Source: Euglena gracilis (Eukaryota). From it: 64,000 nt of DNA. This document shows, piece after piece, positions 26,551 through 58,764 of the stretch. The position numbers and the translations under genes are program-made. Numbering within the stretch: the stretch's first letter is position 1; each line of letters starts with the position of its first letter. The stretch is from contig CP154954.1 of the NCBI GenBank assembly GCA_039621445.1, positions 34,321,737-34,385,736 of the forward strand, in the 5' to 3' direction. The notes below the pieces were generated by a model. It saw only the letters and a program-made list of their open reading frames with translations. It was not told where the DNA came from and made no database searches.

Positions 26551-26995
26551 GACAGGGGGGATTATTCCCTAGATCCCCAACTTTTTCAATGGCTGAGGCA
26601 GCAGTTCAAAAATTACATAAGCCTGAAAACAGACCTTTTTGCCTCACCCGGCAACAAAAAACTGCCACAATTTGTGGCCAGGTGGCCCCACTGGGAAGCC
26701 ACAGCAGTGGATGCATTGCAATGTCCACTGGACAACATGGGGGGCCTTTATGCAAATCCCCCCTGGTCTGTAATTCAAAAATTTCTCCCCAGATTAAGAA
26801 GGATTCCTCAAGCCAAAGTTTTGATGGTCACCCCCTACTGGGATTCAGCCACATGGTGGCCCCAGTTAATAAAAATGAAAGTACCAGGGTCCCCCTGCCT
26901 GAAAATCACCACTTACAAGGGTATGTTCACCAATTGCAGGGGGGAAGAAATGCCACCCCGCAGGTGGCCCCTACTTTGCATGGTTTGCTCAGGCA
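26550..26995 (+). CDS. Dam-like DNA N6-adenine methyltransferase domain of DIRS
   Basis: DYSLD..LF, DLFASPGNKKLPQF, DAL, YANPPW and TPYW..ATWWPQL. Confidence 0.88.
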
Positions 26996-26999
26996 AATT

Positions 27000-39495: not shown

Positions 39496-39513
39496 ATTAT
39501 AATATACTATATC

Positions 39514-39864
39514 GTAAAGGGGTCCTAACCCAAAAATTGTCCAAAATTTGCCTGAGTGGGGCCGAAAATCACTGAAATACCATTATTTTGGTTTTCAGTC
39601 GAATTTAACCTAGGGAAAAGATTATTGTGGTTCTGCTTGAAGGCTTGAACTCAGTTTTTGACCTTGCAGGGCCGATTCTTTGCAATTTTCAAGACTGGTT
39701 GACCAATTTTCCACAGTAGGATTTGCCATATTTCCGTAATTAGCCTAAGAAAGCCCCCACTCGTACCCACCAATTTCACACCAAATCTCACACACAGGGT
39801 TATTTACCAACACAATGCACTGGTACAAGACTACAAAAAAAATCAATTGATTGTGCATGCAAGA
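39514..39864 (-). repeat. ~350-bp repeat, inverted partner of 29231-29579; abuts the chromodomain
   Basis: Reverse complement of 29231-29579 with scattered substitutions. Confidence 0.92.
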
Positions 39865-40030
39865 TCTATGTTATTGCGCTTGTTCCACAGCTTCCAATTC
39901 CGCTGGATATATCCAACAAAAGTTGGTGCTGGCTCCCGAGTGTCCTCCTCTGGCCCATACCCTTTCCAGCGAACTTTCCAGTAGTGCACACCCCTGTCGA
40001 CCTTGTGGTCTTTTATCTTATCGACCACAA
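39865..40030 (-). pseudogene. Chromodomain of element B integrase
   Basis: FVVDKIKDHKVDRGVHYWKVRWKGYGPEEDTREP. Confidence 0.9.
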
Positions 40031-40071
40031 AGTCGTTCGTTTCAGGTAATCTGGAACGGGCTTGAAATATC

Positions 40072-40424: not shown

Positions 40425-40649
40425 ATGGACAGGGGATAGCTTTTCAGTCTGGGGGGCTTAGGTACGGTTTGAAGCCGTCCATATGGACGTCCTCAATCCC
40501 GTTGGGCAAGGCAACTTTATATCGCCCGCTACTACCTAACCTCTCCAAAATTTTGCATGCGCCGAGCCAAAGAAGATCTAGCTTGGAAATTTGCTTTCGG
40601 GTGTGGTTATTCCGTATTCACACGTGGTGACCTGGAATATACGCAGGTG

Positions 40650-41500
40650 TGTTTTAGTTTTGTAAGAACGATTTCCGTTTGTTGGAATTAATTTCTGTGA
40701 TACGTGATTGGAGTGCATAGCGGAGTGATTCCACTTCTGCAAAACACGTTTCACAGCCGACACTGCTTCGGGCGGGTCTCTTCGAGGGTATATCCCCTGT
40801 GGCCGGAGGGTCTCGTCCGAAAACAATTTTGTACGGTGAGTGTGGTAATACCAACCCTGGCAAGGTATTGATGTGAAATAAACACCAACGAAGAAAGTAT
40901 AACCAATTCTTTCCCCAGTCAGTCAGTGAAATTGCGAAGCATATTCACGACGTATTTCACGGCTGCCTCGGCTCTACCATTGCCTTTCGGGCGTTATATA
41001 ATGGAAAAATGCTGCTCAATGCCGAGTAAACCGCACAAAGTTGTGAAAAACCACCAAGAGATCAAGGGATCTTGATCACTCAGGATTTCGTTCGGTAACC
41101 CCATTAAGCATATACATTTATCCAGGAATATGGATGTCAAAATTTGGGCTGTCAACCCTGCTTTCCGGCATGGAATGGCTACTATGTACCAACTCAGCCG
41201 ACAGACGACAACAAAAACGTAATCGTAATTTTTTTTTGTCTTGTCCTTTGCAAGGTTCATGTTCGAGAAAATCCATTCAGATGGACGTAAAAATGTCTGG
41301 TGGTACGGGAAAAAGTCCATCGTACCAGGGGGGGTACGTCTGTGTGGTTTCGCAGCCTGACAAAATTGGCACCGTTGGGAAATTCGCAAACGGCGCGAAT
41401 ATAAATCTTTTTCACTCAGTGTTGTGCAATATTTGCGACCCACTAGTGAATGAAATTATGGGGCCCGAGGGTGACCTGGTTAAACAATATTTATAACCAG
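40650..41500 (-). pseudogene. Gypsy integrase (element B)
   Basis: CQFCQAAK, FVVVCRLSWY..AIPC, GLPNEILSDQD, a KGNGRAE-like motif, and SPYKIVFGRD. Confidence 0.92.
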
Positions 41501-41829
41501 AATCCTTCCGGAAAATAAGTCACAATGGTGATGGAGAGTAATTCTCTCTGCATTCACCATTACGAAGTCTATTCGCAATGGTACTATATATTAGGTCACG
41601 CGAAAAATCACATTCGCGTAAAAATAGGGGGGTAGGAGTTTCCGTACGCGTAATGCGACGGGGTCCGGCAGTGCGTCCACGCCGGCGCCTTTCACACAAT
41701 GGTGAAAAGGCGATGATGCGATATCCCCGGGAAATAGGTAGTGAATCAGGCATGTTGTGCGCAGCGTCGGATCGACGTGCGAGCTCGTCAGCCTCAGTCA
41801 GTCGCATCACCCCTCATCCGGGTTCCCAA

Positions 41830-42082
41830 GATAATACGAGGGGGCTCGGCTGAGAGGATCCGCAACTTTTTGCGTGTGACCTGGGGCATAGATAACCACC
41901 AGGTTAAACTGGCTCAAGAACTCATGCCATCGGCATCTTCAGCCAACTGATGACATGGCCTTGTTCAGGTCCTCGGTATATCAGTGTTGAAGGCTCTCAT
42001 GATCCGTCAACACGAGTATCTGGACCAAGCTGCCTGGCTATCCAGCTGCGGAATTGCTGTGGAATAAGCACAATGGGATATG
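41830..42082 (-). pseudogene. C-terminal half of element B RNase H
   Basis: Continues from REKETY: PIVL..FRSWI, VLTDHESL, RWHEFLSQFNL and ADPLSR. Confidence 0.88.
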
Positions 42083-42501
42083 AGTGTACGTCCCCTGACT
42101 CTATTCCCACTGCCTGTCGGCCTACTTACACCCTCCCGTGGGAACAGAACCAGGAGAGTAACAAAAAAGAAAATCTTTCACTTAACTATTAGTTTTTATT
42201 GCCTTTGGGCTTATGCAGAGCACAAGGCAAAGAGAGGGATTTGTTTGGAAACTCGTTCCTCCAATGTCCTCCTATCGGAGTGTTGAACTTGAAATCTTGG
42301 TTTGCCCTTTTGGGCTAATGAAATGTGAAACAGAATAACAATACCACCTGTGAAAAGAGAAGGCAGATCCGAGATAGGATAGGCTATTCCTAATTCTGCA
42401 ACTTGTATTGCAGAACTTGGAATAGTACTATCTGGCATAACATTGTACATTCTGCAGGCTGCTGCTATGCACAGTGCCATGTTCATGCTGCCTGGTACAC
42501 A
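42083..42501 (-). repeat. 3' LTR of element A
   Basis: Direct repeat of 50255-50673, preceded on the element strand by the PPT GGGAGGGGGA. Confidence 0.95.
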
Positions 42502-43199
42502 TCCCCCTCCCAGGGCTTTGCCCGATTTCCTTACTGGACCAGGCCAGCAAGGATTCAAGCATAGCTCTAAGACTGATGAAGGTACACCAGGAAAGCATAT
42601 CTTGGGTCTGCTTCTCCATCACAAGGTTGATAAACCAGAAAGGGAAGGAAGAGAGGGGAACCTAACAACCCAAAACGCGCAAAAGAGGTTATCCGCTTAT
42701 GCGGCTAACTACTTATTGCGGTAAAGGGGTGGAAGTGGAAGAGCCCATTGGAAAATGGGGCTGGAAGGTTTCCATTCCAGAAAGTCCCATCCACCCGGTT
42801 TGGGGTGTGTCTATGACACGCGGAGAGGTCTCATTCCATAATCGGAAAAGATTGAAGGGTAGGGTGTGGAAGGGGGGGGCACCTGACCAGTCATATCTGA
42901 CCAGGGAGAAAGACCTATTTACAAAACCAACTGCTGGCGACAGCGATTTTGCCCGGGGGGGAAAGGGGAGAGGAGGGGAACTGGTCTAAAGACCTTACAA
43001 AGAATTTTTGCTGTCTGGCAGTCTTATGGTGGCCTTAAGGCCGAAAAGTAACAAGTTGGGGCTATTATTGCGGTGTGCGCGCTGTACGCTGTGCGTCTTC
43101 TTACTGGCGGCATATACCGCTGTGAAGTCTTCACAGTGCTGCGCGGGCACGATGTTGTCGATGGGGTATCCCCAGAGGCTTATACCTCAGAATAGCGGG

Positions 43200-45960
43200 C
43201 AGTGGCCCTAAAAACTGTAGATTTGGCAGTTGTGCCTTGGGTGTGCAGCCTGTAGGCTGACGGTTTGGCACTAGCCAAAAATAATGGGGGGGGGTAGGCT
43301 TTATCGCCCAGAAACATTGCCTTGCGGAATATGCATGGCACAAAAGTACTACTGGGTGTATACCCGAGTCAAAAAAAAAATTCGGCATATTGCCAAAAAG
43401 ATCATACTGAGGTGTACAACGGCAGAAAAAAATGTGGAATTGTGGCAGGCTGCTGCCAATTAACAGAACAAATGTGGTTGGTGTGGCTTATACCACTTTG
43501 AAAAACCAGAAATGAACTGTGAATGCACGTAAAAGGATGGAACATTGTTCCCGTGCGGTGAAATTCATCACAAAAAGCTGGATTTCACCATTTTTGAGCT
43601 ATGGTTCTTATAAACCCTGCAGAACGACACCATTGGTGTTGCAGATGATGACCATTGGGTCCTCCGAATTATATCGGTAAGGGAATTCCACTGAATGAAG
43701 CGGGGGGGGGCAAGAATGCCTTTGGTGTGGTAAGCAGAAAAAATACTGCAAATATGACAAAATCTCATCATGAGTGACTATGCCAGTAAGAAATACTGAC
43801 TTTTGTCAAATTTTTAGGGAAATCCCTATCAGGATTTAGGGCAGAAATGCAGATTCTGCGTCTAGAGTTGCATTTGTGTAACCAAAAGTGCAACTTTGTT
43901 GCATTTTGAGTCCTTTAAGACTGCAAATTTGCCAAGTGCACATAGTGCCTGTTGAGAGTGTCCAATAACACTGCATGTTTGCTGTTGTATGGATTTTGGG
44001 ATTTGGGTGTCTAATAACACCACATCACCCAAAAAGCGGTAAAATTGTGCAAAAGTATCGCAAAAATGCAAAAATACGCTTGAAAATACAAGTAAAATAT
44101 GTCTATGACATCTTGAGCAAAGGAAAAATTGCCATTATCAGCATATCCCTTTGCATCCCACTCTGGCATAGTGACTCATGGTCACTCCCATTAGGGATAT
44201 GAGTGCCAGAATAGGGAAAAATCACTAAAAATTGGACAAAATCAATGATTTAAATGAAAAATTGCACATACGTGCTCCTAAAAATGATTCTAGTGAGCAG
44301 AAATGACTCCAAATTGTGGGCTATAGCCCTCTGAACTGTACCAGGCCTAATAGCCCATACAGAGGGGGTAATGGGCAGAATGCTGCCAAAGGTATTAAAA
44401 AATGGCCATTAGCCAATCTGGTAACCAATGGTAATTAGCCATCAGAAACGATGTAGGGAACAGTATAGAAGCCTTTCAGGCTGATTTGCCAGTCTGGTAC
44501 ACGATCGTACAAGATCTGGCTCAAAATTTGGCTTTTGGTCGGATTGGCTTGGCTTAATTCAATTTTTCACGATCTCCTCAAATAAGAGTACCGTGCAGAG
44601 TTACAGCGATCTGTTTGCACCGCTGGACGGCTCATCGAAGGAGCTTTCGAATGAGGGGTAACATGGCCTATCGGCCAGCTACAGGCGCTGAGATACGTCT
44701 TTGATCTTTTGCCTGTGTGAGTGAGCTTTTGCTATAAGCTCCCATAATTTATTCTACAAAGACAACTTTTGGTTTCTATCTCATAGGCACTACTACGTAC
44801 AGTCAAAACCTCATGGCACGAGGTGCCAGAAATGTTGAGGCTTTTGTGGTGGTTTTGAGGCTATGCCAAAGTGACACTTATGCAAATCTGCATAAAATTA
44901 GCCTATTTGGCTTGTTTTGGCCAATTCAGCCACTTTCAGCCATGTAATATGGCTTTTTGTACCATTTTTTGAGGTCCTATGGACTTTAAACTTTATAATA
45001 TGGATTTGTGGACCTTTGGTCCTTTTGGTCCTTGCAATTTGTGCAAATTGGTCCCATGGACCCATGGACCACATGGGTAATGGCCTATAAGCCTTCCACA
45101 TCATAGGTTGTATTGGTCACAAAGACCTAAGGCTAAGTGGTCAAGTCCATACAAATGCATGTTTGAATGGATTTTCTTCATTTTCTTTTTGGGGGGGGGA
45201 GCAACTATGTTGCAGATTTTCTCAAGGAATTCAACTTATTCCCTATCGGGATTCACTTCTGTAATTTTGAGCATTTTTCCATATCGGGATTGCATTTTGC
45301 CAAAATAATAAGCCATTTAAGGCACAAAACTGCTATTTAAGCACAAGTTGGATAAGTTTTCGGGAAAAATGCAGTATTTGCAATGCATCCCAAAAACTTT
45401 ATCACGTTACTTGTGTTGCTTTGCTCTATAGAGCTTTGGGAACACCGAAATATTTTTGGTGTGGGAGTGGATTGGGTAAAAAACCCTATTCACATAAAAC
45501 TTCACTTCTTGTTTGCTGTCATCAAACAAAATCTGCAATTTGATCATGTGGTACAGATACAAACATCCATGAACATAGTTGCGGATTTCCACACATATAT
45601 CTTTAGGAATGATTCCCAAAAGAATATGGGTGGTTTGGGCATATACACATGGGTCAGAAATGCACGATAGTGCTCACACGACATTGTGAGAAAGGGGGGG
45701 TTGCTAAGGTGGGTGGCGCGATACGCCCGGGGTCTAGCGCGATACGCGCATGATATGGCGCGACACACGCGGGGGGGGGGGCAGTTGCCTCACTGCACAA
45801 CATGTGCGTGGGGGTAGGCTTGGCAGCGCGATATGCGCAGGATTCGCGCGACGCGCGGTGTGCGCAATTAGTGCTTGCGGAGGAATGTCAGCCATGCACA
45901 TCGGCATTGATGTGCGCTATGCGCTTCGGGGGGAATGTGCACATAGTGCTGAATTTGTCT
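43200..45960. other. Non-coding, DNA-transposon-like debris replacing pol in element A
   Basis: No pol homology. Starts CAGTGGCCC at a sharp boundary. GCGCGATA repeats at ~45715-45850. AT-rich. Confidence 0.5.
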
Positions 45961-46768
45961 TGCACTTGACAAAAATCGGTCAATGAATAGAGCTCTCCGT
46001 TGGAGATAGAGTGTGGGGGATTAGTTTTGATGTATATATTCACCTTTGTGTTTGGTTGGTGATTGTGTGGAAAGTTCTCCCAGAGTGCACACCATGGGGG
46101 GAAGGTGCGGAGTAGTTGTCCTGGTCGCGCATGTCGGTCTGCGGGGGTGAGTGTGTAAAAAAAAAATTGAGCATGCGAATTTTGGAGCTGCTGGGGGTGT
46201 ACAGGATTGTCTGAATCGACAAACCTGGTGGAAAACGAAAAGTTCAAAGCAGCTGGGCGACTACTCGACACCGTTTAAACTTCAGGCCTTAGGGCTTTCG
46301 TCTTGGAACCCAGTGGAACGAATGGGGGTTAAGCTACTTGTTACCCCTACCGCATGTGGAACGTTTGTGGATATGCAGTGGGTAGGGGGGGGCACTTTCT
46401 CTTTACCCCGGGTTGAAAACAGTGTTGGTGTTGTTGAAAACGGTGTTGCTGTCATCAAAAACGGTATGTAAAAGTGATGATTAGTGGAAGTTTGAGGGGG
46501 GGGAAGAATTTTGCGGTGTTGTGTGCATTCTTGGAGCGGGAATCCACTCAACCACATGGCCATACATGGGGTATCCCACGATACACCACAACTGGAAACA
46601 CAAAAGTGTTTATATGTCAAAGGTTCATGTAAATTTTGAGCGGGGACACCAGAAAATCCTTGCACACTGACCCGAAAGGATACTGGGCAGGGGATGGCTA
46701 GGGTCGCGACTCCTGTCACCTCCTTTCTAGTACCATCTGTAGTCCGTATCCTTGGATTTTTGGTTCCT

Positions 46769-49700
46769 TCACTCAAAAACCGAACAGGTGGCCATATCAG
46801 CCGTTGACTTTCTTGACGCATATACGTCTCTGACTATATGAGCGCTAAAGCGGGGATGATCCCTTTGGTTACGTGGGGTATCATCCCCCTCCCTGCCCGA
46901 AGCCGGGTGATAATCCTCGATAGAGGGTGTTCTTTGACCTACCTTGTGCCTTTTGGCTAAAGTATGATCTTTTGAACTGCGACTCATATCGCGATGGCTG
47001 TGGCTTAGGTGGTGAGAGTTCGCATAGCGACAGTTGAGGGAGGGGTGGTTGCTGGATCCGCACAGTGAACATTTTGATCGTGATTGGTATTTTGATTTTT
47101 GCGAATGCGCATTTTGTGAAAAACGAGAACTGCGTGATGAGGTTGATCCTCTTGGGCTTGTGTTGCGCCTTCGCGCTGCAGGATTTGGACAATGGCAAGA
47201 TATATGACCCTTTTTGTTACACAAAAAGCACAATTTGTCCGAAAATTCTCCTGAAGAGCGCGAATTGCGCAATTTAGATTCCGCTATAGCGGTATGTGAT
47301 AAGCGTGACACATTTTTCACAGAACTGACGTGGATAGCGGGTATTCCTGCTGTGGGGTAGCTCGTATAAGCCGACTGGATTTGTCCTAAAAGCTGTGATA
47401 GCTTCAATTGTTTGGAAACATAGTTCCATCGCTCATCGAGCGTCAAAATATGTCCTGCGAGTTCCTCTCGGTGAATTTCTTTTATGAGTTTGGGTATAAA
47501 GTGCAGTAATACTGCGTCAAATTGCTCTTTCATTTGGTTTTCGCCTAAGTCGTCTACTTCGGCTGCCAAAGAAAGCCATTTTGAGTACCATAGGTCTATC
47601 GACCTCTATTTTCGGTCATGGGGGGCATATTGCCGCCATTTTTTCTCCAGAGTGATTCTGGAAACCAAACTTGAACATGATGAAGCGTATTGCTCAACCA
47701 AATCCTGAAAAGAAATGCACCCGCGAATGACCAATTGTCTGGCGCGTTCCTTTTCATCTTTTGGTAGACAATCTATGAATTCCATTTTGGTCACCTCTGG
47801 ATTTTCGTCCTGGGTTGGTCCCTTCAATTCCCAGTAGTACTCCCAGTCACGGAAAAACTGTTTCCATGTTGTTGGGTCACCGTCCCATTGGGGCTTCACC
47901 TTTTTCGCGATAGCGATACTTCCTTTGATATCTTTTTGAGGCTCCCATGGCCCTTCGGTGGTATTCAAGCAAGTTGGGCCTGGGCGCAAAACCGCACCAT
48001 GCGCGGGTACCTCGGTGGTTGCACCAAGTGTACTTTTGGATGTATTTTGCGAATGCGCATTCAATATTCCACTTGGTGTACCGTAGGTACCTTGCAAACT
48101 TGGTGAATCGCGAATGCGCGAATGGTGATGCTGATGCATCTCAGGATCAATACCATGTGCGGGAGTGCGGCTCATACCGCAACAAAGTTCATATTCCCAA
48201 ATTTTTCGATTTCTTTGAGGGTTTCGTTTGGCTTTCTCTTGAAAACTAACCCTATCATCCAAAAAATGGTCCATTGGGACTGGTACCGCTTGGGGAGGGA
48301 CTACTGCATGAGCAGAATCGTAATTTTGTGGCAATGTGCCAATAGGCTCTGCCACAGGTGCAGTGTTAGCGCTTTTGGAGCTGGAATCTGCGGCAAGTGT
48401 GCCTACAACACCCGTATCGGGTTTTTGCTGTAAAAAACGCAATTGTGCGTGTACTTGATCCAAATTTTCTGTAAAGTCATGAAAATTTTTCTCCAAATCA
48501 TCGAGAATTTTCAGATGATCGGTGATTGCACCAATATCTTCCTGCAAGCGCTTAATACGCCTGCGGTGTTTGGACATATCGTCCAGAAGAGGGATTTTGT
48601 CAGAAATCAACAGGAAATCCTGCGAAATTGCACCAAAAACAGTGTCCAATTCTTGAACTCGTACTGCTAAAGTACGTATCGCACTGGAAATGATCTCCAA
48701 TTGTGGAGATGGTTGGTCCGAATGCAGACTTTTGACTATTTCAGCCTTTGTCTGTTCCATCAAGACCGAAACTTGCGCGGATAGCGCGATAATGTCATTT
48801 TGCAGTTTTGTGACATCCTGCTTCACCGTTTTCTCGGTGTTCATGAGACTATCACAAAATCCTTGCATAAATTCGTCATTTTCCGCGCGCATTTCAGCGC
48901 AAAACTGCTCCAAGTGTAGGGATGTGAGTGTGGGTATGGGTGTGGTCGACGGCAATGCGTCTGGGGTTGGTGATTGCACCTGAAGCAATTTTGTGCTTAA
49001 TTCTTGCATGCATATCTGTAAATCCGCTATCGCGGTTTGAATTACGGTTACATCTGTAATTTTGCCATTTGTTTCCGCACAGCGGGCATGGAACTTAGCC
49101 AAAGCGGCTTCAATTTCTACCATGTCACTTTGCCGCTGTTGTTGCAAATCCTCAAACCTACTCGCAATATTTGCGATTTGGGTGTGAAAACTTGCAACTT
49201 CAGCAGGAAATTCACCAGAATGATGAGATTTCTGCTCCAATCGAGAAAGTCTCTCCTCCAATTGTTTCACATAAGTAGGGGTTGCAAAACTTTCATGTGC
49301 TTGAGCAGAAACTTGTGCAAAATTCGCGGAATCACCGCTCAATTGGAGAATGCGCTGTTGCGCTTTCTGGAAATCAGTTGCAAGGTTGGAAAACTGCTGC
49401 AGTGTGATAAATTGTCTGATAGGACTTGGACATGGGAGCACATGGGGGGGGCGGGATAAAATTTGGTATTTCTAACCCAACCTCAATAAAAAGTGGATGT
49501 GGAGCAACCGCCTCAGAATCAAATGTGCCTATCGGCATTGGTGCGATATCTCGCTGGGGGGTAAAACTGTCAGCCAATCGGCTTTCCACCAAAAGTGGTT
49601 GAGCCTGTTGGGCTATGGGCAGCTCGATAGGGCTGCTGGACACCGATAGGTGTGGGGGAGCCCATTGGGCGGGGGGATGAGGCACCATTAGGTTTGCACC

Positions 49701-49994
49701 CCTTTGGGGTTGGGAATGCTCGATAGAGCTGGACATTCGGGTGGGGGGGTGCTCAATAGAGCTGTTAATTTGGGTTGGGGGATGCTCAATGGAGCTGGGG
49801 ATTTGGGTGGGGGGATGCTCAATAGAGCTGGGGGTATACCTTGATGGGAGCGTATCCTCCTCTTGTGACAATTCATGTGAAGTGCTTCTCAAAGAACCAA
49901 TCAGTTCTTGGTAATCAATGAGTGTGTTGGTGCTTGAGCTCTGCATATTTTTATTTGCAGAAACAAACACAAGCAAACCCAAAAAGGTAAGCAA
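46769..49994 (-). pseudogene. gag: gag of element A (coiled-coil N-terminus, capsid-like region, zinc knuckles)
   Basis: ORFs 49374-49994, 47606-49441 and 46769-47569. CFLCNKKGHISCHC and CSLCGSSNHPSLNC knuckles. KKVKPQWDGD.TTW..FFRDWEYYW is shared with B. SSIEHP repeats. Confidence 0.85.
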
Positions 49995-50244
49995 AGGAAC
50001 AAACTTAGAAGGGTGTGGCAGTGTATACTGCCCAGAGCCTCCTGAAGCTCGTACCTGTGCTTAGAAGTTGGCTCCAAACAGCTCGTGGATGCTTTGTAGC
50101 CTATAGGCTGAGCACCACTCACTGTTTGAAGTCACCTGTTCAGATGGGGGGGAGAAGGGGCGTAGGAAAGAAACCTAATCTGCTACCAAGTGTATTCCTT
50201 GATAGTCTTTCTGATTGTGAAGTATGTGTAGGTTCGTAACCTAT

Positions 50245-50254
50245 TCTGCTACCA
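50245..50254 (-). promoter_or_regulatory. Primer-binding site, initiator tRNA-Met type (element A)
   Basis: TGGTAGCAGA directly after the 5' LTR. Complementary to the ...UCUGCUACCA 3' end known for many eukaryotic tRNAiMet. Confidence 0.85.
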
Positions 50255-50673
50255 AGTGTACGTCCCCTGACTCTATTCCCACTGCCTGTCGGCCTACTTA
50301 CATCCTCCCGTGGGAACAGAACCAGGAGAGTAACAAAAAAGAAAATCTTTCACTTAACTGTTAGTTTTTATTGCCTTTGGGCTGATGCAGAGCACAAGGC
50401 AAAGAGAGGGATTTGTTTGGAAACTCGTTCCTCCAATGTCCTCCTATCGGAGTGTTGAACTTGAAATCTTGGTTTGCCCTTTTGGGCTAATGAAATGTGA
50501 AACAGAATAACAATACCACCTGTGAAAAGAGAAGGCAGATCCGAGATAGGATAGGCTATTCCTAATTCTGCAACTTGTATTGCAGAACTTGGAATAGTAC
50601 TATTTGGCATAACATTGTACATTTTGTAGGCTGCTGCTATGCACAGTGCCATGTTCATGCTGCCTGGTACACA
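50255..50673 (-). repeat. 5' LTR of element A
   Basis: TGTGTACCAGG...GTACACT on the element strand. Direct repeat of 42083-42501. Confidence 0.95.
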
Positions 50674-51900
50674 ATATGTCTCCTTTTCGCGAACGCTCCA
50701 TTTAACCTGTCCTTTCCCGTTGTCGCCCTGTAGCTTCCTGTTGAAGAAAGCCACAGGTCGGAGTTCATTCGCCGCATTATGCTGGCTAAGAACCCCGCCA
50801 ACAGCGTAATCGCTGCTGTCGCCTATCAGGACACATGGTTTGTATGAATCCGCGATATCGAGAACCACGTCCTCGAGGAGCAAGTCCTTGATTTTATTCA
50901 AGGACTCGCACATTTGCGTTATCGGGTGTCCGATTTTTGAGTTGTCGGGTTAAGGGTACCGCGATTGTTTGCCAAATTCTTCATGTAAATCGGGTAATAT
51001 TGGGCTAATCCCCAAAATCCATTTAAGTGCGTTAAGGTCTTAATGACCTCAGGAGTCCGTCTCTTAATGGCCTCCATATTGCTGGGTGCGGCTTTACACT
51101 GCCCGTTGCTCAGGATGTGCCCGCAAAACTTAATAAATTCGCGAAACAGGTGCATTTTGGAACCCTTCACAAAAATCACATGCTTTTGGAACGCGGATAA
51201 TACCGCCTGCACATCGCGATAATGCCGTTCAAGGACACCCTCGCCCGATTTCGCGGATGGTGGTTGGGTTCCCACCAGTGCATCATCGATGTACACCAGA
51301 GCAAACGGCAAATCGCGCAAAACCCACTGGATCATGCGTTGATACATGACTGGGCCATTCTTCCCATGACTGGGTCCATTGGTACACACCCTTGGATGTC
51401 ACGAATGACGTGTACGTTGCGAATCAGGATGCAAATGCATCTGATGGACACCGTCTTCCAGAAATAAGATTGACCACAACCGGTTATCCGATCGTTTAGT
51501 GATTAAATCCTCGATCAGCGGTAACGGGAGGGAGTCATCATTCATTTGGGAGTCAAGGTACCGGTAATCCAGCACCAGTCTCCACTTCTTCTGACCAGAC
51601 TGGTCAGCGGGTTTCGGCACCACAAAACCTTGTGATGTCCACTCGCTCCTGGAAGGGATAATCCATTTCCACTAGATGAGCTTCTCAATCATCTCGTTGG
51701 GAGCTTGTTCGCTTTCACACGAAAAACGGAATATTTTCGGGTGCATGAGTTTAGCGCCTTTCTTGAGCTCGTTTTTGCAAACACCGAACGGCCCGCCAGT
51801 CGCGGGGTCGATGCCGCAGGCGTAAACTGGGTTATCCAGTACACCATGGAATTCGCGAGTGATTCGTGAACAATAGTCATCTGACTTGGTGTGTTGGTCC
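50674..51900 (-). pseudogene. pol: Gypsy reverse transcriptase and N-terminal RNase H (element B)
   Basis: VPKP..KWRLVLDYR..LPLIEDL, YQRMI..VYIDD, FCGH, DSSDYAVGGVLSQ and RPVAFF.RKL. Confidence 0.93.
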
Positions 51901-52089
51901 GCACTCTTGATAACCGCAGAAATCTGCGTTGAGGGTGTGGCCACCCCATTGGTACCAAGGCATCATAGCACACGCAAAACGGATATTCCGAATGCGACAA
52001 AGAAACAAACGTGAAAAATGTATTCTTTAACAGCTGTAATACTATACCGCAAAAATCCTCGAATAGTGGTTCATCAGAGGGTTAATCCC

Positions 52090-52420
52090 ACCAATGAAAA
52101 CACACACATACAATAGCTGCTGAACCCAATCCGCATTCGGATTGACGGGTATGATGAGAGCTCCTCGCGCTTCATCGCGGAGGATTCTCTGCACCACATC
52201 CGGAAGAAGTTTTGGGGTAGGGTGCATCCACAGCACCGTATCACCCCAGAATTTTAGAAACACGTTGGAATGTCACGACCAATGTCGCGAGAAGCGCGCA
52301 TGCGCTTGTGATGAAAACGCATCAATTTCCAGCGACAAATCGAGGGAATCAGCCAACATCGCGATTTTGGAGAACGATTCCTCCAAAATACGGTATTGGC
52401 CAAAGTTAAATGCATTCTAT
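52090..52420 (-). pseudogene. Dam-like N6-adenine methyltransferase domain inside gypsy pol
   Basis: YRILEESF..LEIDAFSSQAHARFSRHW*..NVF..FWG..LWMHPT..LPDVVQRILRDEARGALIIP...W...L. Collinear with the DIRS MTase at 26550-26995. The NPP position reads HPT. Confidence 0.72.
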
Positions 52421-53149
52421 ACGCGCATCGCGTACCTGTCGACCTGGTTCGCGGGTTGAAGGGCGGTAACACAATTAAGGGATCCGCAAACATAAGTCAA
52501 GGGTCTGCCATCCACACTCCCAAGGGGCATTCCCAAGCGTTTATGGGTCGGATGAGTGCATACCCAGTCCTATCATGGCAGCTGGAGGTGGGGGAGGTTA
52601 CTTGATGTACGGTCGCGCATTGTGATCAGCAACCAAGTGTATGTGGGTGAAAAATCGGGATAAGTGTTGGTGTTTGGACTAAACATCCACAATCGAAATC
52701 TGGCTGGGGGAAATTCTCCCTGGAAGGAAGTGTCGGAGTAGTGGTCCTGGTCGCGCATGTTGGTCTGGTGGGTGTGTGTGTAAAAGCTGGGATGCGCTTT
52801 TGTAGCTGCTGGGGGGTGTACTGGTGTATCTGAAAGCGGTACATCTGGTGGAAAACGGGGTATTGTTGCAGCTGGGCGACTACTCGACACCGTACGTACT
52901 TCAGGCCTTTGGGCTGTCGCCTTGTAACCTAGTGGAACGAGGGGGGTGCCGCTACTCACCTGCCCTGCCTCATGGGGAACGGAGGTTGGTGTGTCATTGG
53001 GCAGGGGGAGAACTTTCTCGGTACACCCAGTTTGGAAAACGTTGGTTGGTGTGGTTGATAACGGGGTAAAATTTTTCGAAAACGGTGCGGAAAAATTGGT
53101 GGTCGTCGTGGTTGACACCACAGGTGATGAAGGTTTTAGGGGCAATGAA

Positions 53150-53500
53150 GAGGATGGTGATGTGCGCAAACCGTGGGAGCGGCAATGCACTACCAGCCGG
53201 TGTTGACGTAAAACGGGGAATCCCAGAATTACGTCCGAACCATGCATTCCGGCTTCGTATCCCCAGGTATCCAGAAAAATTTGCGGTTTGGAGGGGTGTG
53301 AGTGGTGCTTGGGGATGAGGGGTAGGACAATGTCCTAAAAGCATCCTAAGTCACGACCGCACATGAGGGTGTTGTCAGCCGTCGTAATTTTGATCAGCTC
53401 TTGGCTTTCACGAAGAGGGGGGTGGGCATCAACCCGAACCCAAAAAGTAGTGCAATGCGACAACCAGTGTCAATGAGAATTTTGACTTTTGCACAAAAAT
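53150..53500 (-). pseudogene. Aspartic protease (element B)
   Basis: VKILIDTGC at ~53460-53490, ITTADN, and SDVILGFPVL. Confidence 0.85.
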
Positions 53501-53779
53501 TTTGGATTTTGATTTCCGCTTGGACCAAAAGTTTCCATGGAGGGTAAGCAAAGTGAAGGGTCTGGCGAAAATACGTTTTCTTGCCAACTTTCCCATGAAC
53601 CGTTTCCTACTTTGCACAACATTCTGAGCGAAAAATTGGAGTGGAGGGTGGGGGACCCGATAATTTTCCGGGTACCGACCGGAAAGGCAGATGGGCTGGG
53701 GGGGGGCAGGGTTGATCAGGTCCTACCTCCATCTTTTCATCAGCCCAGAGGTCCGTGCCCTCGGACCTCGGGCTCCCCT

Positions 53780-56700
53780 ACTCCAGGTCCGAACCGGCCG
53801 AATAGCCGGCTATGGGCGTTTTAGAGGTATAAATGGATTTCAACGTGCGCACCGCCCTGCAAGCGTCGTCGAAATCGGTATCCGTGGTCTCATCCCCCAT
53901 CCTGCCCGAAGCCGGGGTGTCATCGTCCAAACAAGATATCTTGAAACCGACTTTATTGCGGTTGGAGGATTGACCCTTGTCACCGCGATTCATACCGCGA
54001 TGACGTTGGCCAGCGCCGGGAGAATGTAAACGCAGACATTTGGATGAGTGGTGATCACTCGATCCACAAAGCGAACACCGAGCTTTGTGTCGCCATTCTG
54101 GGTAACGGGGGATCGGTTTCCTTAATTCCCGTCAAACCGTCGTGGTGAGCGGGTATCACGTCGAACATGACCGGTGTGTCGGGGTTTTCCGGATGAGGAT
54201 CGCGAAGAGGATGATCCGCTTCGCGAACGCGATTGCGCTGTCTCGCGATAAGAATCACGGTTTTTGGACGAGGCACCGGGTGACCTACCCCGAGGGGTAC
54301 CGTGTTTCCGCTCATCGCGGAACAGGATCCGGGGGCTAATACCACCGGAACGGGGACCCGATGACCGTGAATTGCCCGATTGGCGTAAAAATGCGGAAGA
54401 ACCCAAACCTCGTGATAAGGTCGAGCCTCGCGGACTCTGAATACTCTTTCTGGCATCAGGATTAGGACATTCCCAAGACATATGTCGCGCTTTGTTGCAC
54501 GAAAAGCGCACTTTATCCGTGGCTTGGTCCGAAGTTGGCAGATATCGTGTTTTCGATCCCGTGGTGGGTGAAGTGGGTGAAACCGGTCATTTTTACAATA
54601 CGTTCACCGAACCAGCCGGTAATCCAGCGGTTGGGTGTGCGTTATACGCGGCTTGAATTTGACCGAGAAGCTGTGATACCTTCAATTGCTTGGAAACGTA
54701 GTTCCAGCGTTGGTCAAGAGTCATTGGATGACTCGCCATCTCCTCACGGTGTATATCCTTGATGAGTCTAGGCGTGAAATGTATGAGAACAGCATCAAAC
54801 TGTTCGCGCATTTGCTTTTCACTGAGTTCATCCACCTCGGTGGCAAGTCCTAACCATTTGGCATTCCAAAGTTTAATGGACTTCCACTTGCGATGGGGAG
54901 CATTGCCGCCACTTTGTCTCTAGGGTAATCCTAGCGACCAAAGTTGAAGTGGTGTAAGCGTATTGCCCAACCAGGTCATCAAAGGAAACGCGGCAGCGAA
55001 TCACAAGTTGTCGCGCGCGCTGCTTATCATCCCTTGGGAGGCAATTGATGAGTCCCATCTTTATTCCCTCCTGGTTTGTGCCTTAGGTTGGCCCTTTCAA
55101 TGCCCAGTAGTATTCCCAGTCCCGGAAAAAGTGTCTCCATGTGGTTTGATCACCGTCCCATTGGGGTTTCACCTTTTTCGCAATTGCGATGGTGCCCTTG
55201 AAGTCTTTCGGAGGAACCCATTGACCCTCGGTGGTATTCCGCGGTTTTGGGCCTGGGTCCGCTCGAGCACTAAGCATATCCTTTCCGGATTTTTGTCGGA
55301 ATTGCGAAATTTCTCGCGAACGTGAACCCTGGTACCGAAAACTTGGTCGCCAACCCTGTTGGTCACCCGTAATATGGGGACTCTCGGGTGTGGTGGTATG
55401 TCGTGCATGCAACATGTTGTCCTCTCCTGGTGTACGGGTTTGCTCCTTCCACGCACAAGCATGGAATGGTGAATTTCTTGGTTGAGACTTGGCGGAATCG
55501 CCGTGATTTCCGAAAATTCGGTTCCCGTAAACCCCCCTCCCCTAATAGAAGCACGGGTGCGCTTATAGGGGATCGCCGCCTCCGGCGGCGGGGGGTGCGC
55601 TTCTATTTGGACCCTACCTGCGCGATTTTTGTTGATTTCCTTTAGAAATCCATCAAAATGGGGGGTGCGCTTGTAGCGGACCGCCGCCTTTGGCGGCGGG
55701 GGGTGCGCTTTTATTTGGACCCTGCGCTTGTAGCGTCCCCGTGCTTCTATTAGGGGGGAGGGGTTTAATGGGAACTTCGTCGGAAAACTGGGTTTGGTTT
55801 GAGGACAGGGCCAATTGGTGGCACAATTCGCGGAGTCGCGGGTTGTGACACTCAGGACACGGGTGATGGTGGTGCATGTGCACCCAGATTAGTGTTGTGG
55901 AAACGCAAATCTGGAGGATTTGGCGCATCTTCGGCAATGCATACTGCCGAATTGCGGTGTGAAACCCGCTGTTGGTTGGACACATTATCCAACCCCGCAG
56001 ACAAGTCATGCAAACTTTGCTCCAAATGCTCAAGGGGGGGTGCGCTTATAGGCGGACCCTTGGCGCGGTGCGCTTATTCGGTGAGTGAATGCGCGAGGCG
56101 ATTTGTGAATTCAAAGTGGGTTTTGGGGTTTTTGAGAGGAAAGGGTCCCGGTTCATGGCGGGGGGGTGGGGGATTCGTGTGGGAAAAACGGGTTTGGTTT
56201 GGGCCGGGGGACAATTCGGAGTCGGGTTGGCAATGCACCTCAAACGGTGTGTGTGAAATGTTTGCCGATTAGTTTGTGGAAACGCAAATCTGGTGGGACA
56301 TTCCCAGCAGCATACTGCACTGTGAAACTTGGTTGGCACAATACTCCAATCATGTCATCCTCAAAATGGCCGCAACCGCTCCGCGCGCATCCGTTTGCAG
56401 GTGCCCAATCTGCGCGGACATCGCGGTTTCCTGTGAGGTGTGGTTGTGAATCGGAGAGAATGCAAGGTGGCAAGGTGCGGGTGGTGTTGGCTGCAACACA
56501 ACGCGGTTGTGGTACACACGGTCAAATTTCCGGGTTGTGGGTTATCCAACAACGCAGAAATTCGCTCGTCCAACGTGGTAATCTCACCCTGCGTGGATCG
56601 GGCATTCCGATTCACCGATTCCTCAAGCCGTAATAGGCTGTTGCCGAAATCTTGCAAGGTTTCCTGATTGCCACTGAGCATTTTGTTAAAAAAAGCTTTG

Positions 56701-58195
56701 AAATCAGGGTTCTCGGTAATCCGGGAACTGGAACCTGCAGGTAAAGACTGCATTTCAGTTACTTTGGTAGATACCGATGCGTACCGGGTCTGTAGTTCCC
56801 CAATAGCAGCCTGAATACCGCTAATGTCCGGAACTCGGTGGGAAAGTGCGGAATAGATTCGTTGCAAACCAGAAATGGCCGAGTTCATCCCGCCAGTGTC
56901 GGATCGCAGCTGCAACTGCAGGGAATCCTACCGTTGTGCTACTTCCGCGACTTTCGCGTTCAGAGAGGATAATCCAACCTGATTTGTGTCACAAAAGCAG
57001 GTTTTCTGCTCCAAACGGGAAAGTCGCTCCTCCAACTGCCGCACTGGATAAACTTCTCGTTGGCTTGTGAGTGGAATTGCCGAAACGTTTGTGTTTCGTC
57101 GCACAACTGCATAATGCGGTGTTGCGATTCATGGAAAGTTGCGGATAGGGTGATGAAGTGCTCCATAGACACAAATCCACCAGTACCGGATGTTGCAGAC
57201 GAGGAATCTCGTGCATGCAACTGTTGTTGCAAGTGCAACAGCGCGGATGAACAGGACTCCATTTGTCCCAATAACTGTCGTAGTGAATCATGCAAGTGCA
57301 GAAACTTGGTGTCATTCCGCGTTTCCGCTTCGTGCATGCATTCACTAATTTGCTGGAAGTTTTGTGGGAGCTGTTGGCACATTTTGTCGAAGATTTCCCA
57401 AAAGTTTTCAAGGTCAATACCCGCACTTTCGAAATTCCTCTGACAATATTTGCCAACTTCCTGCAAGTAATTCCAGCAGTATTCCAGCTTGGTGAAGTCA
57501 TGTTTTGGTTGTACGCATCAAACTGAAGCACTTTGTTCTGTGCGGTTGCAAAATGTGCAGCGACTTCTTTCACATGGTTGAACTGCCTCACAATGGGGTG
57601 ACCCTCTGGAAGCACATCCTCAGCAGTGAGTAGCCCCCCCGTGCACACCGCATAACCATCCATGGGTTGGGACATACCGGAGAATTCCGGTACCAATAGG
57701 CGTGTCTCCGGCTGCCAACTTAATGCGGGATAGCAGCCGAGATCGGGTGGTGGTGGCAAAGCTCTGTAAGGGCTTGCTGGTGGAAGAGCGGGTGGTGGTT
57801 GAAAATAAACACGGGGCTTCTAGCCCACCATCACCAGAGAAGCCCGGTGGCGGAATTACCACCGGTCTGTCCGGTGTGCACAACTGCGCCATTTCCGCAT
57901 AAAGAGGTGAATACCCCCGTTGTGGCAAGATGAGTGCGGAAGAGGCCGCATTAGCCTCTGAAGCCAATGATGCGGAGGGCTCATCGCCGACCACTGTCAA
58001 TGATGACAAGAGCTGCAGTTTTGACAATCGAACAAATTGTGCCTCATTGCCGTGGGAACTGGAAGCACTTTCACATAAAAGCTTCCAAATCCCCTGTTTC
58101 TTGGTCAATGTCTTGCAATGATGCCTGTAATATGGCATAGTTGAATTAATGCTTGGGGTCTGTGCTTTGCGTCTTTCTGATACCAAAAACAGCAA
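53780..58195 (-). pseudogene. gag: gag of element B (fragmented)
   Basis: Series of minus-strand ORFs homologous to gag of A (KKVKPQWDGD, EQFDAVL.HF.P, RWNYVSKQLK). FSCNKARHMSWEC knuckle remnant. Confidence 0.82.
55524..55772. mobile_element. MITE (Tc1/pogo-like CCGTA terminus) in gag of B
   Basis: TIRs CCCGTAAACCCCCCTCCCCTAATAGAAGCACGGG / CCCGTGCTTCTATTAGGGGGGAGGGGTTTAATGGG. Internal TGCGCTT repeats. Confidence 0.8.
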
Positions 58196-58439
58196 AAACC
58201 CACAAACTAATCAATTGTGCTAGCACCAGAGGGGCTGTAACGTGTAGTACCGTACAGAGCCTTCCGGAGCCTGCTCGTCTGCTTAGACATTGACTAGAAC
58301 CCGGGAGCTGACGCTGTGACCGTGCAATAACGGCGTGGGGGCCCTCCCTGCGAGTCAGGGTAGGATCGAACCAATCTGCCTCCAAATGTAATACCTGGTA
58401 GCCTTTCTTTCTGTGAAGTATGTGTGGGATCGTAACCAA

Positions 58440-58449
58440 TCTGCTACCA
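58440..58449 (-). promoter_or_regulatory. Primer-binding site, tRNAiMet type (element B)
   Basis: TGGTAGCAGA immediately after the LTR end GTACACT. Confidence 0.85.
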
Positions 58450-58764
58450 AGTGTACGTCTGATTCCAAATTCCCCTTTCCCAATTCCTAAAAAAGCCTTC
58501 GCTTTCGCCTTGGCGCACCTATTTGGGAACTGAAAATGAGAGTAACGGAAAAACCCTTTCCCCCTTCCAAAGAAGCAAAGCACGGAGCAATGCAGGGAGG
58601 ACGGACTGGATATCCAAGTCCGGTCCGCAGAAAAGGAAGGAAACAAGAATATAAAGAATTCAACATGGGAGAGAGAAGGGGCAACCATTAGGAAATCCTA
58701 AAAGGATCTGCTTCCATCCTAACTTCCTTAACGGAAGTGGACAGAAGCATACGCCTGGTACGCA
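58450..58764 (-). repeat. 5' LTR of element B, abutting the satellite
   Basis: TGCGTACCAGG...GACGTACACT termini match the LTR termini of A. Flanked by the PBS and by satellite GTGCCCTGGCTTTGGAGG. Confidence 0.85.

Follow-up and report, generated by a model that had tools for sequence, protein, structure and literature searches.

Retrotransposons with a Dam-like domain in pol have already been described. Fernandez-Moreno et al. (May 2026, bioRxiv 10.64898/2026.05.21.726589) reported them as "DAM-LTRs", chromodomain forms included, in five lineages: Chlorophyta, Chloro-Ochrophyta, Ichthyosporea, Pyropia, and Euglena. As presented in the text of that preprint, these elements have in common with the one studied here (element B) the Ty3/gypsy type, a chromodomain in many members, and a pol Dam domain from DIRS-type elements, and the proposed role is also the same, namely 6mA marking of cDNA or insertions. 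The Dam domains of transposable elements are said there to align with part of prokaryotic Dam only. The order protease-Dam-reverse transcriptase (RT) is not stated in the preprint's text, where the word "protease" occurs 0 times, and the architectures are given in its figures. Beyond this preprint, our search of the literature on adenine methyltransferases in chromodomain LTR retrotransposons found nothing, and the methyltransferase passages of the Ectocarpus transposable element and Chlamydomonas v6 papers contain no gypsy elements bearing Dam.

The DIRS1 group has a small domain that is homologous and whose motifs come in the same order as in element B. There, it lies after the RT and RNase H of elements with a tyrosine recombinase, whereas in element B it lies before the RT, and the integrase is of the DDE type and carries a chromodomain.

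Anatomy and decay of the element

The window, meaning the whole 64,000-nucleotide stretch of Euglena gracilis DNA that was analyzed, very probably contains, on its minus strand, a degraded copy of a Ty3/gypsy element that bears a chromodomain and whose family encodes, within Pol, a Dam-type domain of about 145 residues, of the DIRS kind and related to PF05869 (Table 1). The Pol order in this family is protease, a Pro/Ser/Thr linker with a four-Cys motif, the Dam-type domain, RT, RNase H, integrase, and chromodomain. An intact relative of 1677 aa, P0149, is collinear with the window along the whole pol, from protease to chromodomain (tblastn), and itself matches RVT_1, RT_RNaseH_2, Integrase_H2C2, rve, and Chromo in Pfam. 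Element B shows two chromovirus features, the pol order protease, RT, RNase H, and DDE integrase and a chromodomain on the integrase C terminus. The preliminary description had called it a Ty3/gypsy chromodomain element, and this is borne out by RVT_1 (E 5.9e-7), RT_RNaseH_2, Chromo (on ORF 40196-39843), and an rve match below the cut-off (E 6e-4; 20.5 bits against 32.6), together with the collinearity with P0149. A DIRS identity was also considered and is ruled out by the DDE integrase (rve) and by the position of the Dam-like domain before the RT.

Table 1. Positions in the window of the parts of element B, the element nested in it, and the DIRS-like Dam domain
Feature	Position	Strand	Evidence
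Dam domain (YANPPW) of a separate DIRS-like element	26551..26880	+	ORF 25159-27063; Pfam Dam at aa 474-569, E 0.0012, below cut-off
Chromodomain at integrase C terminus	39861..40067	-	Pfam Chromo PF00385 E 6.6e-7, 29.6 bits (cut-off 25.1); 69.6% identity to P0149 aa 1604-1672
RNase H, second part, and integrase (zinc-binding, rve core, C-terminal parts)	40429..42082	-	tblastn P0149 aa 1034-1601, 11 stops in HSPs
Nested LTR element A	42083..50673	-	LTRs 42083-42501 and 50255-50673; 5-bp target duplication ATATG
RNase H, first part, interrupted at 50673/50674	50668..50949	-	Pfam RT_RNaseH_2 E 7.3e-14; tblastn P0149 aa 945-1037, 67% identity
Pre-RT connector and reverse transcriptase (YIDD)	50970..51950	-	tblastn P0149 aa 601-930, 60.5% identity, 2 stops
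Dam-like (PF05869-related, DIRS-type) methyltransferase-fold domain, motif IV HPTP	51989..52416	-	phmmer, profile, tblastn
Four-Cys motif remnant, only ...PQPDFDCGC... left	52653..52793	-	tblastn P0149 aa 291-343
Aspartic protease (ILIDTGC) and Pro/Ser/Thr-rich linker	52801..53610	-	tblastn P0149 aa 19-273, E 3e-25, 2 stops in HSP
Gag-like region with coiled-coil-rich ORFs and degraded CCHC knuckle	54055..58210	-	ORFs; knuckle read by eye

The remaining parts were assigned from other evidence. The protease DTG motif sits in ORF 53606-53394, and the window's own ORFs gave no Pfam match for a protease. Since Pfam gave no gag match for element B, its gag is labeled by position and by similarity, with 72% nucleotide identity between 54614-55257 and the gag of nested element A. 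LTRs of element B were not found in the window, no repeat being shared by 58150-58800 and 38900-39900, so that the term LTR element is applied to element B from its pol and its relatives; on the 5' side, the element runs into a satellite at 58765. The four-Cys motif reads C-x2-C-x10-C-x-C in P0002, P0005, P0009, P0010, P0012, P0149, and P0151, and ends in ...CC, with no residue between the last two Cys, in P0006.

The Dam-like domain covers about 143 codons between protease and RT. The minus-strand frame ending at 52272 reads NAFNFGQYRILEESFSKIAMLADSLDLSLEIDAFSSQAHARFSRHWS, then one TGA (52273-52275), then HSNVFLKFWGDTVLWMHPTPKLLPDVVQRILRDEARGALIIPVNPNADWVQQL. Thus, the motif-bearing frame that had been proposed between the protease (IDTG) and the RT (YIDD) is present as the same string, with one TGA interrupting it. 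A further stop lies at 52082-52084 and a frameshift between 52117 and 52100, and the alignment with P0149 extends over 52413-52013 (tblastn). The span first given for the domain, 52090-52420, was right as to place, but the domain runs farther, in another frame after the frameshift, to about 51989. Its motifs follow the order motif I (E-V/I-D-A-F-S/A-S), motif III (D/N-A-F), and motif IV.

This copy of element B is dead and does nothing, as had been stated before. There are 17 in-frame stops in the aligned stretches, several frameshifts, and an 8.6-kb LTR element nested in the RNase H. The LTRs of nested element A are 419 bp long and 98.6% identical; its gag and linker are related to those of element B, and no pol was detectable in it. 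LTRs and a target site duplication are shown by element A only. In samples of about 5-6% of two RNA runs, 36 and 68 reads aligned, in both orientations, and none was >=99% alike to the window copy. At most, these reads are evidence of a low level of transcription from related copies, and not from the copy in the window. An Rfam scan of the whole window gave no match.

Homology, fold, and family of the Dam-like domain

Searched with phmmer against a library of 1.84 billion representatives, the window segment matched 148 proteins at E<=1e-3, of which 20 reached E<=1e-10 (best, 1.1e-25), which by these scores is far above chance. Dam (PF05869) is in turn matched at E<=1e-3 by 77 of the 91 aligned relatives, with a best value of 2.1e-18. 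The window's own Dam-like segment and the neighboring ORFs had no Pfam Dam match at E<=1, and the Pfam-scanned members of its clade reached 16.8-24.9 bits, all below the Dam gathering cut-off of 28.1 bits; more distant relatives exceed it (e.g., P0083 with 42.8, P0042 with 39.7, and P0032 with 37.9 bits). Consequently, membership in the Dam family is supported by transitive and profile evidence, and the Dam or N6-methyltransferase profile match envisaged in the preliminary description was obtained for the relatives and not for the segment itself.

The comparison with the DIRS-like element in the same window leads to the same family. Its ORF 25159-27063 has RVT_1 at aa 107-241 and reads ...TDLFAS...YANPPW...WW, with NPPW as motif IV in contrast to the HPTP of element B. 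Pairwise, the two domains are weakly similar (BLASTP E 0.016; 19/85 identical), and a profile built from the gypsy segment's matches recovers the window's DIRS domain at aa 465-574 with 45.8 bits. Similarly, a profile made from the 16 closest gypsy relatives gives 60-67 bits for the DIRS-order proteins P0103, P0113, and P0114. The earlier identification of the segment as a Dam-related domain of the DIRS type is thus upheld by the PF05869 matches of the relatives and by this profile. In the domain tree, which has 98 columns, a support of 2 at its deepest split, and 139 inner branches of which 73 are open, the placement of the window's DIRS Dam beside its gypsy Dam had an AU test p of 0.48; because this pairing was left unrejected, a DIRS donor lineage cannot be named from the domain tree alone.

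The AlphaFold2 model of relative P0010 has a pLDDT of 94-98 over residues ~130-270 and predicts a compact class-I (Rossmann) methyltransferase fold for the Dam-like domain. Against solved structures (VIA-align), the model gave Z 10.4 for PCIF1, 9.4 for PH1948, 8.7 for METTL5, and 8.2-8.5 for KsgA/DIMT1/Erm, and, among DNA enzymes, 8.2 for T4 Dam, 8.1 for E. coli Dam, and 7.5 for M.TaqI. These structural matches are middling (Z 8-10), and they point to RNA N6-adenine methyltransferases at least as much as to DNA ones. A profile of the relatives' sequences searched against the PDB found no solved structure, the best match being an unrelated DUF (E 0.41), and Foldseek against the PDB gave weak matches only (E ~1e-3). 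The fold of bacterial and phage Dam (PF05869) is like that of the model over 107-108 residues, but the retrotransposon domain is shorter and without the target-recognition insert, and large parts of the Dam chains fall outside the alignment. PCIF1/CAPAM, the nearest solved fold (132 residues at 3.5 Å), and METTL5, a near one (134 residues at 3.9 Å), are cellular enzymes with RNA substrates and only 11% identity to the domain. Both use an NPPF motif, and we know of neither in a retroelement context.

As for the family, P0149 and P0151 (1208 aa) are uninterrupted and share the order protease, Cys motif, Dam-like domain, RT, RNase H, and integrase, with the chromodomain end seen in P0149. Domain and RT share a single open frame in P0151, P0149, P0012, P0024, and P0049, three of them with the protease upstream. 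Among the 30 long matches scanned with Pfam, Dam lies upstream of RVT_1 in one ORF in 11; a retroviral-type protease match lies upstream of Dam in 4; the DIRS order (RVT_1 before Dam) was found in 3 and a copia-type order (Dam before RVT_2) in 2. A word-based homologue search returned none at similar length and one, P0151, at longer lengths. In the ESM Atlas, the clusters brought together various taxa, and in some of them 11-26% of the members had Dam; these are leads only. The Dam-like domain is 44-47% identical to that of P0149, as against 39-44% for the protease, 19-28% for the linker adjacent upstream, and 81% for the RT. The Dam-like domain appears to be kept under constraint, conserved about as well as the protease in uninterrupted ORFs, and these comparisons show it to be a regular component of pol in this family, placed between protease and RT.

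It could be argued that a DIRS fragment, e.g., from the element at 23.6-28.3 kb, was inserted or misassembled into this one gypsy copy. A DIRS-like element with a Dam domain is indeed present in the same window, the region is rich in nested insertions, and the short domain alignment left the pairing of the two window domains unrejected. However, these domains are only 22% identical, while the segment is 69% identical to P0001 and to P0151 within the domain, both of its flanks are collinear with P0149, and five relatives have the domain and the RT in one frame. Furthermore, in two DNA runs of the same organism, the numbers of contig pieces aligning to 50700-53650 were 12,826 and 13,792, with a depth over the Dam part like that of its neighbors. 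A private accident is accordingly extremely improbable; it is refuted by the intact collinear relatives P0149 and P0151, whose order agrees with the preliminary description's treatment of the segment as part of the element.

Element B is a member of the known DAM-LTR kind, as it has a Dam-like domain and a gypsy-type RT in the same pol, collinear with the intact P0149 and P0151. The capture of Dam by a chromodomain-bearing gypsy lineage, put forward at first as new, holds insofar as the domain is a regular part of a chromovirus pol, but the kind is already in print as DAM-LTRs (bioRxiv 10.64898/2026.05.21.726589).

Motif IV and the possible roles of the domain

Motif IV in the window is HPTP, not the canonical (D/N)PP(Y/F/W). 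The preliminary description had taken the reading of NPP as HPT for decay. This does not hold, as His is common to the nearest relatives, two of them long open frames: P0151 has HPPL and P0149 HPMF, and these intact relatives also have N for D in motif III. NPP[F/Y/W] occurs in 0 of 21 rows of the window's clade (SH-aLRT 97) versus 79 of 123 rows outside it, and in the clade the canonical Asn, the aromatic residue, or both are gone, giving N-P-P-I/L/V or H-P-P-x. The Pro-to-Thr change is the sole one at this motif that looks private to the window. Over all 144 rows, 35 are without Asn (23 His, 9 Cys, 0 Asp, and 0 Ser among them), and the Dam-domain tree needs at least 12 N/H changes at the catalytic Asn. 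Co-variation of D/N in motif III with N/H in motif IV looked paired within the clade, but across the tree it comes to only 2 independent pairs on supported branches, with a median p of 1 in the sign test, and the idea was dropped. The clade nevertheless keeps the domain at protease-like conservation in open Pol frames of 1200-1700 residues.

We consider it likely that the best overall explanation of the locus joins an element of the DAM-LTR kind with a reading of the role of its Dam-like domain. The domain would be translated as part of Pol and, because of this, may be packaged with the RT in the virus-like particle, near the RNA:DNA and double-stranded cDNA intermediates. The integrase chromodomain would then steer integration to marked chromatin, as chromovirus integrase chromodomains do. 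For the window's clade, we tentatively favor, at a little less than an even chance, a domain that may no longer be a canonical N6-adenine methyltransferase and could instead serve as a binding or scaffolding module (for SAM, adenine, or nucleic acid, or for recruitment of the host 6mA machinery). This non-catalytic reading draws on a comparison of motif IV with known enzymes, and we know of no active amino-methyltransferase with His in the first or an aliphatic residue in the fourth position of motif IV. The analogy behind it is METTL14, the catalytically dead partner of METTL3, a conserved nucleic-acid-binding scaffold with EPPL as motif IV. Likewise, METTL14 has a methyltransferase fold that lost the acidic/amide and aromatic residues of motif IV and is still conserved, but it belongs to a different family (MT-A70), which makes it an analogy only. 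To our knowledge, no partner enzyme is known for a retrotransposon Dam-like domain.

Alternatively, the domain may be an active N6-adenine DNA methyltransferase that directly marks the element's own cDNA in the particle, as an RNA:DNA hybrid or double-stranded DNA, so that new insertions would carry 6mA and be held in permissive chromatin by a host maintenance enzyme. Self-marking with 6mA is also the model of the preprint, which reports that more DAM-LTR copies than other LTR copies are 6mA methylated in two ichthyosporeans and Euglena gracilis; this excess in three species favors a writer or recruiter role. The methyltransferase fold, the motifs I, III, and IV in order, the conservation of the domain in intact ORFs, and the rows outside the clade that keep NPP[F/W/Y] (79/123) are consistent with a writer as well. 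However, no 6mA arose when Dam domains of DIRS, DAM-LTRs, and adintoviruses were expressed in dam-deficient E. coli (Fernandez-Moreno et al.), and Asn-Pro-Pro is kept in almost all Dam domains sampled in the preprint, in contrast to the absence of the canonical motif from the window's clade. Because the clade's motif IV is noncanonical, down to the HPPL and HPMF of its nearest intact relatives and the N for D in motif III, and matches no active enzyme that we know of, the 6mA-writer role seems doubtful there, and we hold direct writing on cDNA to be unlikely.

An action on RNA, with a PCIF1/METTL5-like adenosine methyltransferase modifying the element's genomic RNA or a cap-adjacent adenosine, would agree with RNA adenine methyltransferases being the top structural matches and with weak Pfam PCIF1_WW matches (P0103, E 2.3e-5; the window's DIRS ORF, E 0.017). 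But PCIF1 and the two Dams differ by only about 2 Z units, all these enzymes share the fold, Dam is the only Pfam family matched by most relatives, and the motif degeneration counts against any canonical adenine-N6 transfer in the clade, which leaves this alternative improbable. What likelihood remains falls to a domain without function. A further proposal, with rather less weight than the binding module and somewhat more than the cDNA writer, is that the catalytic Asn was replaced many times in retrotransposon Dams and that this clade turned a captured methyltransferase into a pseudo-enzyme or an enzyme of different chemistry, not a 6mA writer. If true, the product could be a pseudo-enzyme binding SAM, adenine, 6mA, or a replication intermediate, or it could perform another chemistry with the clade-specific four-Cys motif.

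Retrotransposons that encode modules of their own for chromatin or DNA modification illustrate the adaptation of mobile elements to the epigenome of the host. Since the DAM-LTR kind is now in print, the contribution of this locus is mainly to confirm, independently and at the level of sequence, that in a gypsy lineage the Dam-type domain has a constant position between protease and RT. It is also a caution for the 6mA self-marking model: the window's clade has lost the catalytic motif and still conserves the domain, so that presence of the domain is no proof of activity. The natural motif variants (NPPF, NPP-aliphatic, HPPx, and CPPF) offer material for functional comparison.

Place of the domain in the gypsy polyprotein

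The preliminary description had placed a methyltransferase-like string between the protease (PR) and the reverse transcriptase (RT) of the outer element, a degraded minus-strand Ty3/gypsy chromovirus, and this string is real. It is read as ...NAFNFGQYRILEESFSKIAMLADSLDLSLEIDAFSSQAHARFSRHWS*HSNVFLKFWGDTVLWMHPTPKLLPDVVQRILRDEARGALIIPVNPNADWVQQL... in the minus-strand frame ending at 52272, with one TGA (52273-52275) as its stop, and it lies between a protease ORF and an RT with YIDD (Pfam RVT_1, E 5.9e-7), which is followed by RNase H (RT_RNaseH_2, E 7.3e-14). The chromodomain clears the Pfam cut-off as well (E 6.6e-7). P0149, an uninterrupted library relative of 1677 residues reached by cluster look-up, carries in Pfam a weak Dam match (459-529), RVT_1 (712-882), RNase H, Integrase_H2C2, rve and Chromo (1616-1651), and its tblastn alignment to the window is collinear throughout. 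The word-based search, run at longer lengths, found one protein, P0151 (1208 residues), also an uninterrupted relative, which shares 69% identity with the window segment and has Dam (312-383) upstream of RVT_1 (549-720) in a single open frame.

Features of the outer gypsy element and its surroundings in the window
Feature	Position	Strand	Basis or content
PR	53610-52801	-	tblastn of P0149
Protease ORF, ILIDTGC	53606-53394	-	upstream of Dam-like segment
Four-Cys motif remnant	52793-52653	-	tblastn of P0149
Dam-like, frame -2	52413-52114	-	tblastn of P0149
Dam-like, frame -1	52117-52013	-	tblastn of P0149
RT	51950-50970	-	tblastn of P0149
RNase H, first part	50949-50668	-	tblastn of P0149
Nested LTR element	42083-50673	-	8.6 kb
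RNase H / integrase	42083-40429	-	tblastn of P0149
Stretch without counterpart in P0149	40428-40068		about 360 bases
Chromodomain	40067-39861	-	tblastn of P0149
DIRS-like element	23600-28350	+	open 634-residue ORF: RVT_1, then Dam with canonical NPPW
ORF of DIRS-like element	25159-27063	+	RVT_1, Dam
Downstream ORF of DIRS-like element	27364-28344		
Short inverted matches	23531-23657 / 28279-28155		at DIRS-like element
Four overlapping open frames	35129-38871	+	299-347 residues each
Satellite arrays	1-14301; 58765-64000		period ~213 bp

The intact collinear relatives, the order of domains among other relatives and the coverage by contigs lead us to reject the alternative that the segment is a private insertion of a DIRS fragment in one gypsy copy. 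In a Pfam scan of 30 long library matches, Dam stands upstream of RVT_1 in 11, and a retroviral-type protease match stands upstream of Dam in 4 (one weak); the DIRS order, with RVT_1 upstream of Dam or PCIF1_WW, occurs in 3, a copia-type order with Dam upstream of RVT_2 in 2, and Dam alone in 7, while 3 (P0033, P0095, P0100) are unrelated or ambiguous. Furthermore, two DNA runs from the same organism placed 12,826 and 13,792 contig pieces on 50700-53650, with depth over the Dam part similar to that over neighbouring parts. The segment is present in P0149, P0151 and thousands of contig pieces, and so survives the refutation test set in the preliminary description, under which its absence from other family copies would have marked a private insertion. 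An insertion of DIRS origin could draw on the AU test of a 98-column domain alignment, where a tree pairing the DIRS and gypsy domains of the window was not rejected (p 0.48). We read this result as giving no information on the donor, and not as support for recent transfer, because these domains share 22% identity, whereas the window segment and P0151 share 69%; a long branch leads to the DIRS row, and resolution in the domain tree is poor.

This copy of the outer element has 17 stops in its aligned stretches and at least 8 frame changes (tblastn of P0149), and no LTRs belonging to it were found in the window. A complete nested element interrupts its RNase H at 50673/50674; the LTRs of this insertion are 419 bp long and 98.6% identical, and its target duplication is 5 bp (ATATG). 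The nested element has a 621-residue gag ORF and linker with 72-75% DNA identity to those of the outer element and no detectable pol, suggesting a young, non-autonomous relative that would rely on elements such as the outer gypsy. The stretch between the C-terminal part of the integrase and the chromodomain, where ORFs read Gly/Ser/Arg-rich repeats, is probably a small insertion. On its 5' side, the gypsy meets a satellite at 58765. The large satellite arrays, with copies 83-97% alike and a period estimated from self-match offsets, flank the transposon-rich middle in mostly opposite orientations. The four overlapping open frames are Pro/Ala/Arg-rich and had no match in Pfam.

Homology and predicted fold

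A phmmer search of 1.84 billion representative proteins with a 124-residue read-through of the segment (X at the stop) returned 148 proteins at E<=1e-3, of which 20 also reached E<=1e-10, with P0001 as the best match (E 1.1e-25, 69% identity). The window segment itself matched no Pfam family at E<=1; most of its aligned relatives matched Dam. The alignment (A1, 91 rows) comprised P0010 first, the window segment and 89 of the 148 phmmer matches, the shorter ones; scanned row by row, 77/91 rows matched Dam PF05869 at E<=1e-3 (best 2.1e-18), and every other family was limited to at most one member.

The motifs cited for comparison in the separate plus-strand DIRS-like element are also present, its ORF reading TDLFAS...YANPPW...WW, with RVT_1 (residues 107-241) and a Dam match below threshold (474-569, E 0.0012). 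Compared directly, the two domains match only weakly (BLASTP E 0.016, 19/85 identical). A profile of all phmmer matches found the DIRS Dam with 45.8 bits; a profile of the 16 closest relatives scored 60-67 bits against relatives whose domains follow the DIRS order and just 11 bits against the window's DIRS. The downstream ORF of this element had no recombinase match in Pfam, and the short inverted matches may be its terminal repeats.

An AlphaFold2 model of the relative P0010, built from A1, reached pLDDT 94-98 over approximately residues 130-270. Foldseek returned weak matches only (KsgA, Dot1L and PCIF1, E ~1e-3), and searching the PDB with a sequence profile of relatives found nothing. In a VIA-align comparison with 48,161 chains, PCIF1 scored Z 10.4 (132 aligned residues, rmsd 3.5 A), PH1948 9.4, METTL5 8.7, KsgA, DIMT1 and Erm 8.2-8.5, T4 Dam 8.2 (107 aligned residues), E. 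coli Dam 8.1 and M.TaqI 7.5. From the model and the profiles, we conclude that the segment is a small methyltransferase fold of class I within the adenine-N6 group, a relative in sequence of Dam PF05869 and of the DIRS domain. On the modelled fold, DNA and RNA enzymes cannot be told apart.

Catalytic motif and conservation

The window's HPTP aligns to motif IV in a 151-row domain alignment where NPPF (53), NPPW (18) and NPPY (8) are found. A quick IQ-TREE analysis of 144 rows, run without the motif columns, groups the window with P0001 (HPPP) and P0108 (HPPQ) in a starred set; this set is enclosed, together with the gypsy-order P0002, P0005, P0006, P0009 and P0012, in a 21-row clade (starred; SH-aLRT 97). 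Canonical motif IV occurs in 0/21 rows inside this clade and 79/123 outside; ten of its rows combine NPP with I, L or V at the fourth position, eight have His first, and three read NPHY, NPTL or YPPI. The preliminary description took the window's HPT for decay, a reading that does not hold: on sequence comparison, the His is inherited, because the intact P0151 (HPPL) and P0149 (HPMF) share it. In motif III (DAF), N replaces D in P0151, P0149 and the window alike, and a test for co-variation of motifs III and IV on the tree was not significant. At two near-invariant positions the window has a change of its own, Thr for the second Pro and Arg for a Lys. In the codon for this Lys, it stands apart from nearly every other copy in the organism (52187 C>T, 57 contigs, DNA run X1).

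Asn holds the first position of motif IV in 109 of the 144 rows, His in 23 and Cys in 9; Tyr, Ala and Phe have one row each, and Asp and Ser none. On the tree, N/H requires at least 12 changes. Replacements of Asn confined in bulk to His and Cys are not the spectrum that random decay would be expected to give. Additionally, five clade members are 44-47% identical to P0149 in the Dam-like domain; identity to P0149 is 39-44% in the protease, 19-28% in the 74-residue linker directly upstream of the domain, and 81% in the RT (P0151). Judged by these identities, the domain and the protease are conserved to much the same degree; the domain lies within open frames of 1200-1700 residues and is not a decaying passenger.

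Between the protease and the Dam-like domain, the window's clade conserves a four-Cys motif, C-x2-C-x10-C-x-C (...QPDFDCGC...), seen in P0002, P0005, P0006, P0009, P0010, P0012, P0149 and P0151 and absent, as judged by eye, from the more distant gypsy-type P0024 and P0049. It may be a zinc-binding module; its pLDDT in the AlphaFold2 model is only 56-75.

Possible role and relation to known elements

Chromodomains direct integration in chromoviruses, and that of the outer element would do the same. The analysis shows where the Dam-like domain lies in Pol, its fold, its homology and its motif states; as part of Pol, it would enter the particle with RT and meet replication intermediates. METTL14 is a catalytically dead methyltransferase fold, and the clade's loss of the motif resembles such folds. 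Because of this likeness, a non-canonical role in binding, scaffolding or recruiting is our leading suggestion, to which we would give slightly less than an even chance. That the domain writes directly on DNA, as the preliminary description proposed, we consider unlikely from the motif states, and action on RNA would be more improbable still; the remaining probability falls to a domain with no function. The architecture and homology in that description stand, and its writer role is unsupported.

The novelty of the arrangement has been overtaken by a preprint, the sole paper describing gypsy elements with Dam in our full-text literature search (bioRxiv 10.64898/2026.05.21.726589). Since its available text defines DAM-LTRs in five lineages, chromodomain-bearing ones included, and claims the first such report, this kind of element is already known (bioRxiv 10.64898/2026.05.21.726589). 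That text does not state the protease-Dam-RT order, which figures or supplements may show. In the model proposed there, the TE Dam puts 6mA on RNA:DNA intermediates and host AMT1 then maintains it; methylated DAM-LTR copies were more numerous in three species, and several TE Dam domains expressed in dam-deficient E. coli gave no 6mA (bioRxiv 10.64898/2026.05.21.726589). Among the library proteins, the Ty1/copia-type polyproteins P0065 and P0083 have this Dam-like domain too, with integrase on one side and RVT_2 on the other, an order fitting the lineage described there as 'DAM flanked by the integrase and the RT'. P0100 (622 residues) combines a Dam-like domain (435-530) with a weak match to C-5 cytosine methylase (210-278, E 0.007), and may represent the dual-methyltransferase type that the same text calls 'EpiLTR' (bioRxiv 10.64898/2026.05.21.726589). 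What may be new here is the clade-wide loss of the canonical motif despite continued conservation of the domain, along with the conserved four-Cys motif upstream of it.
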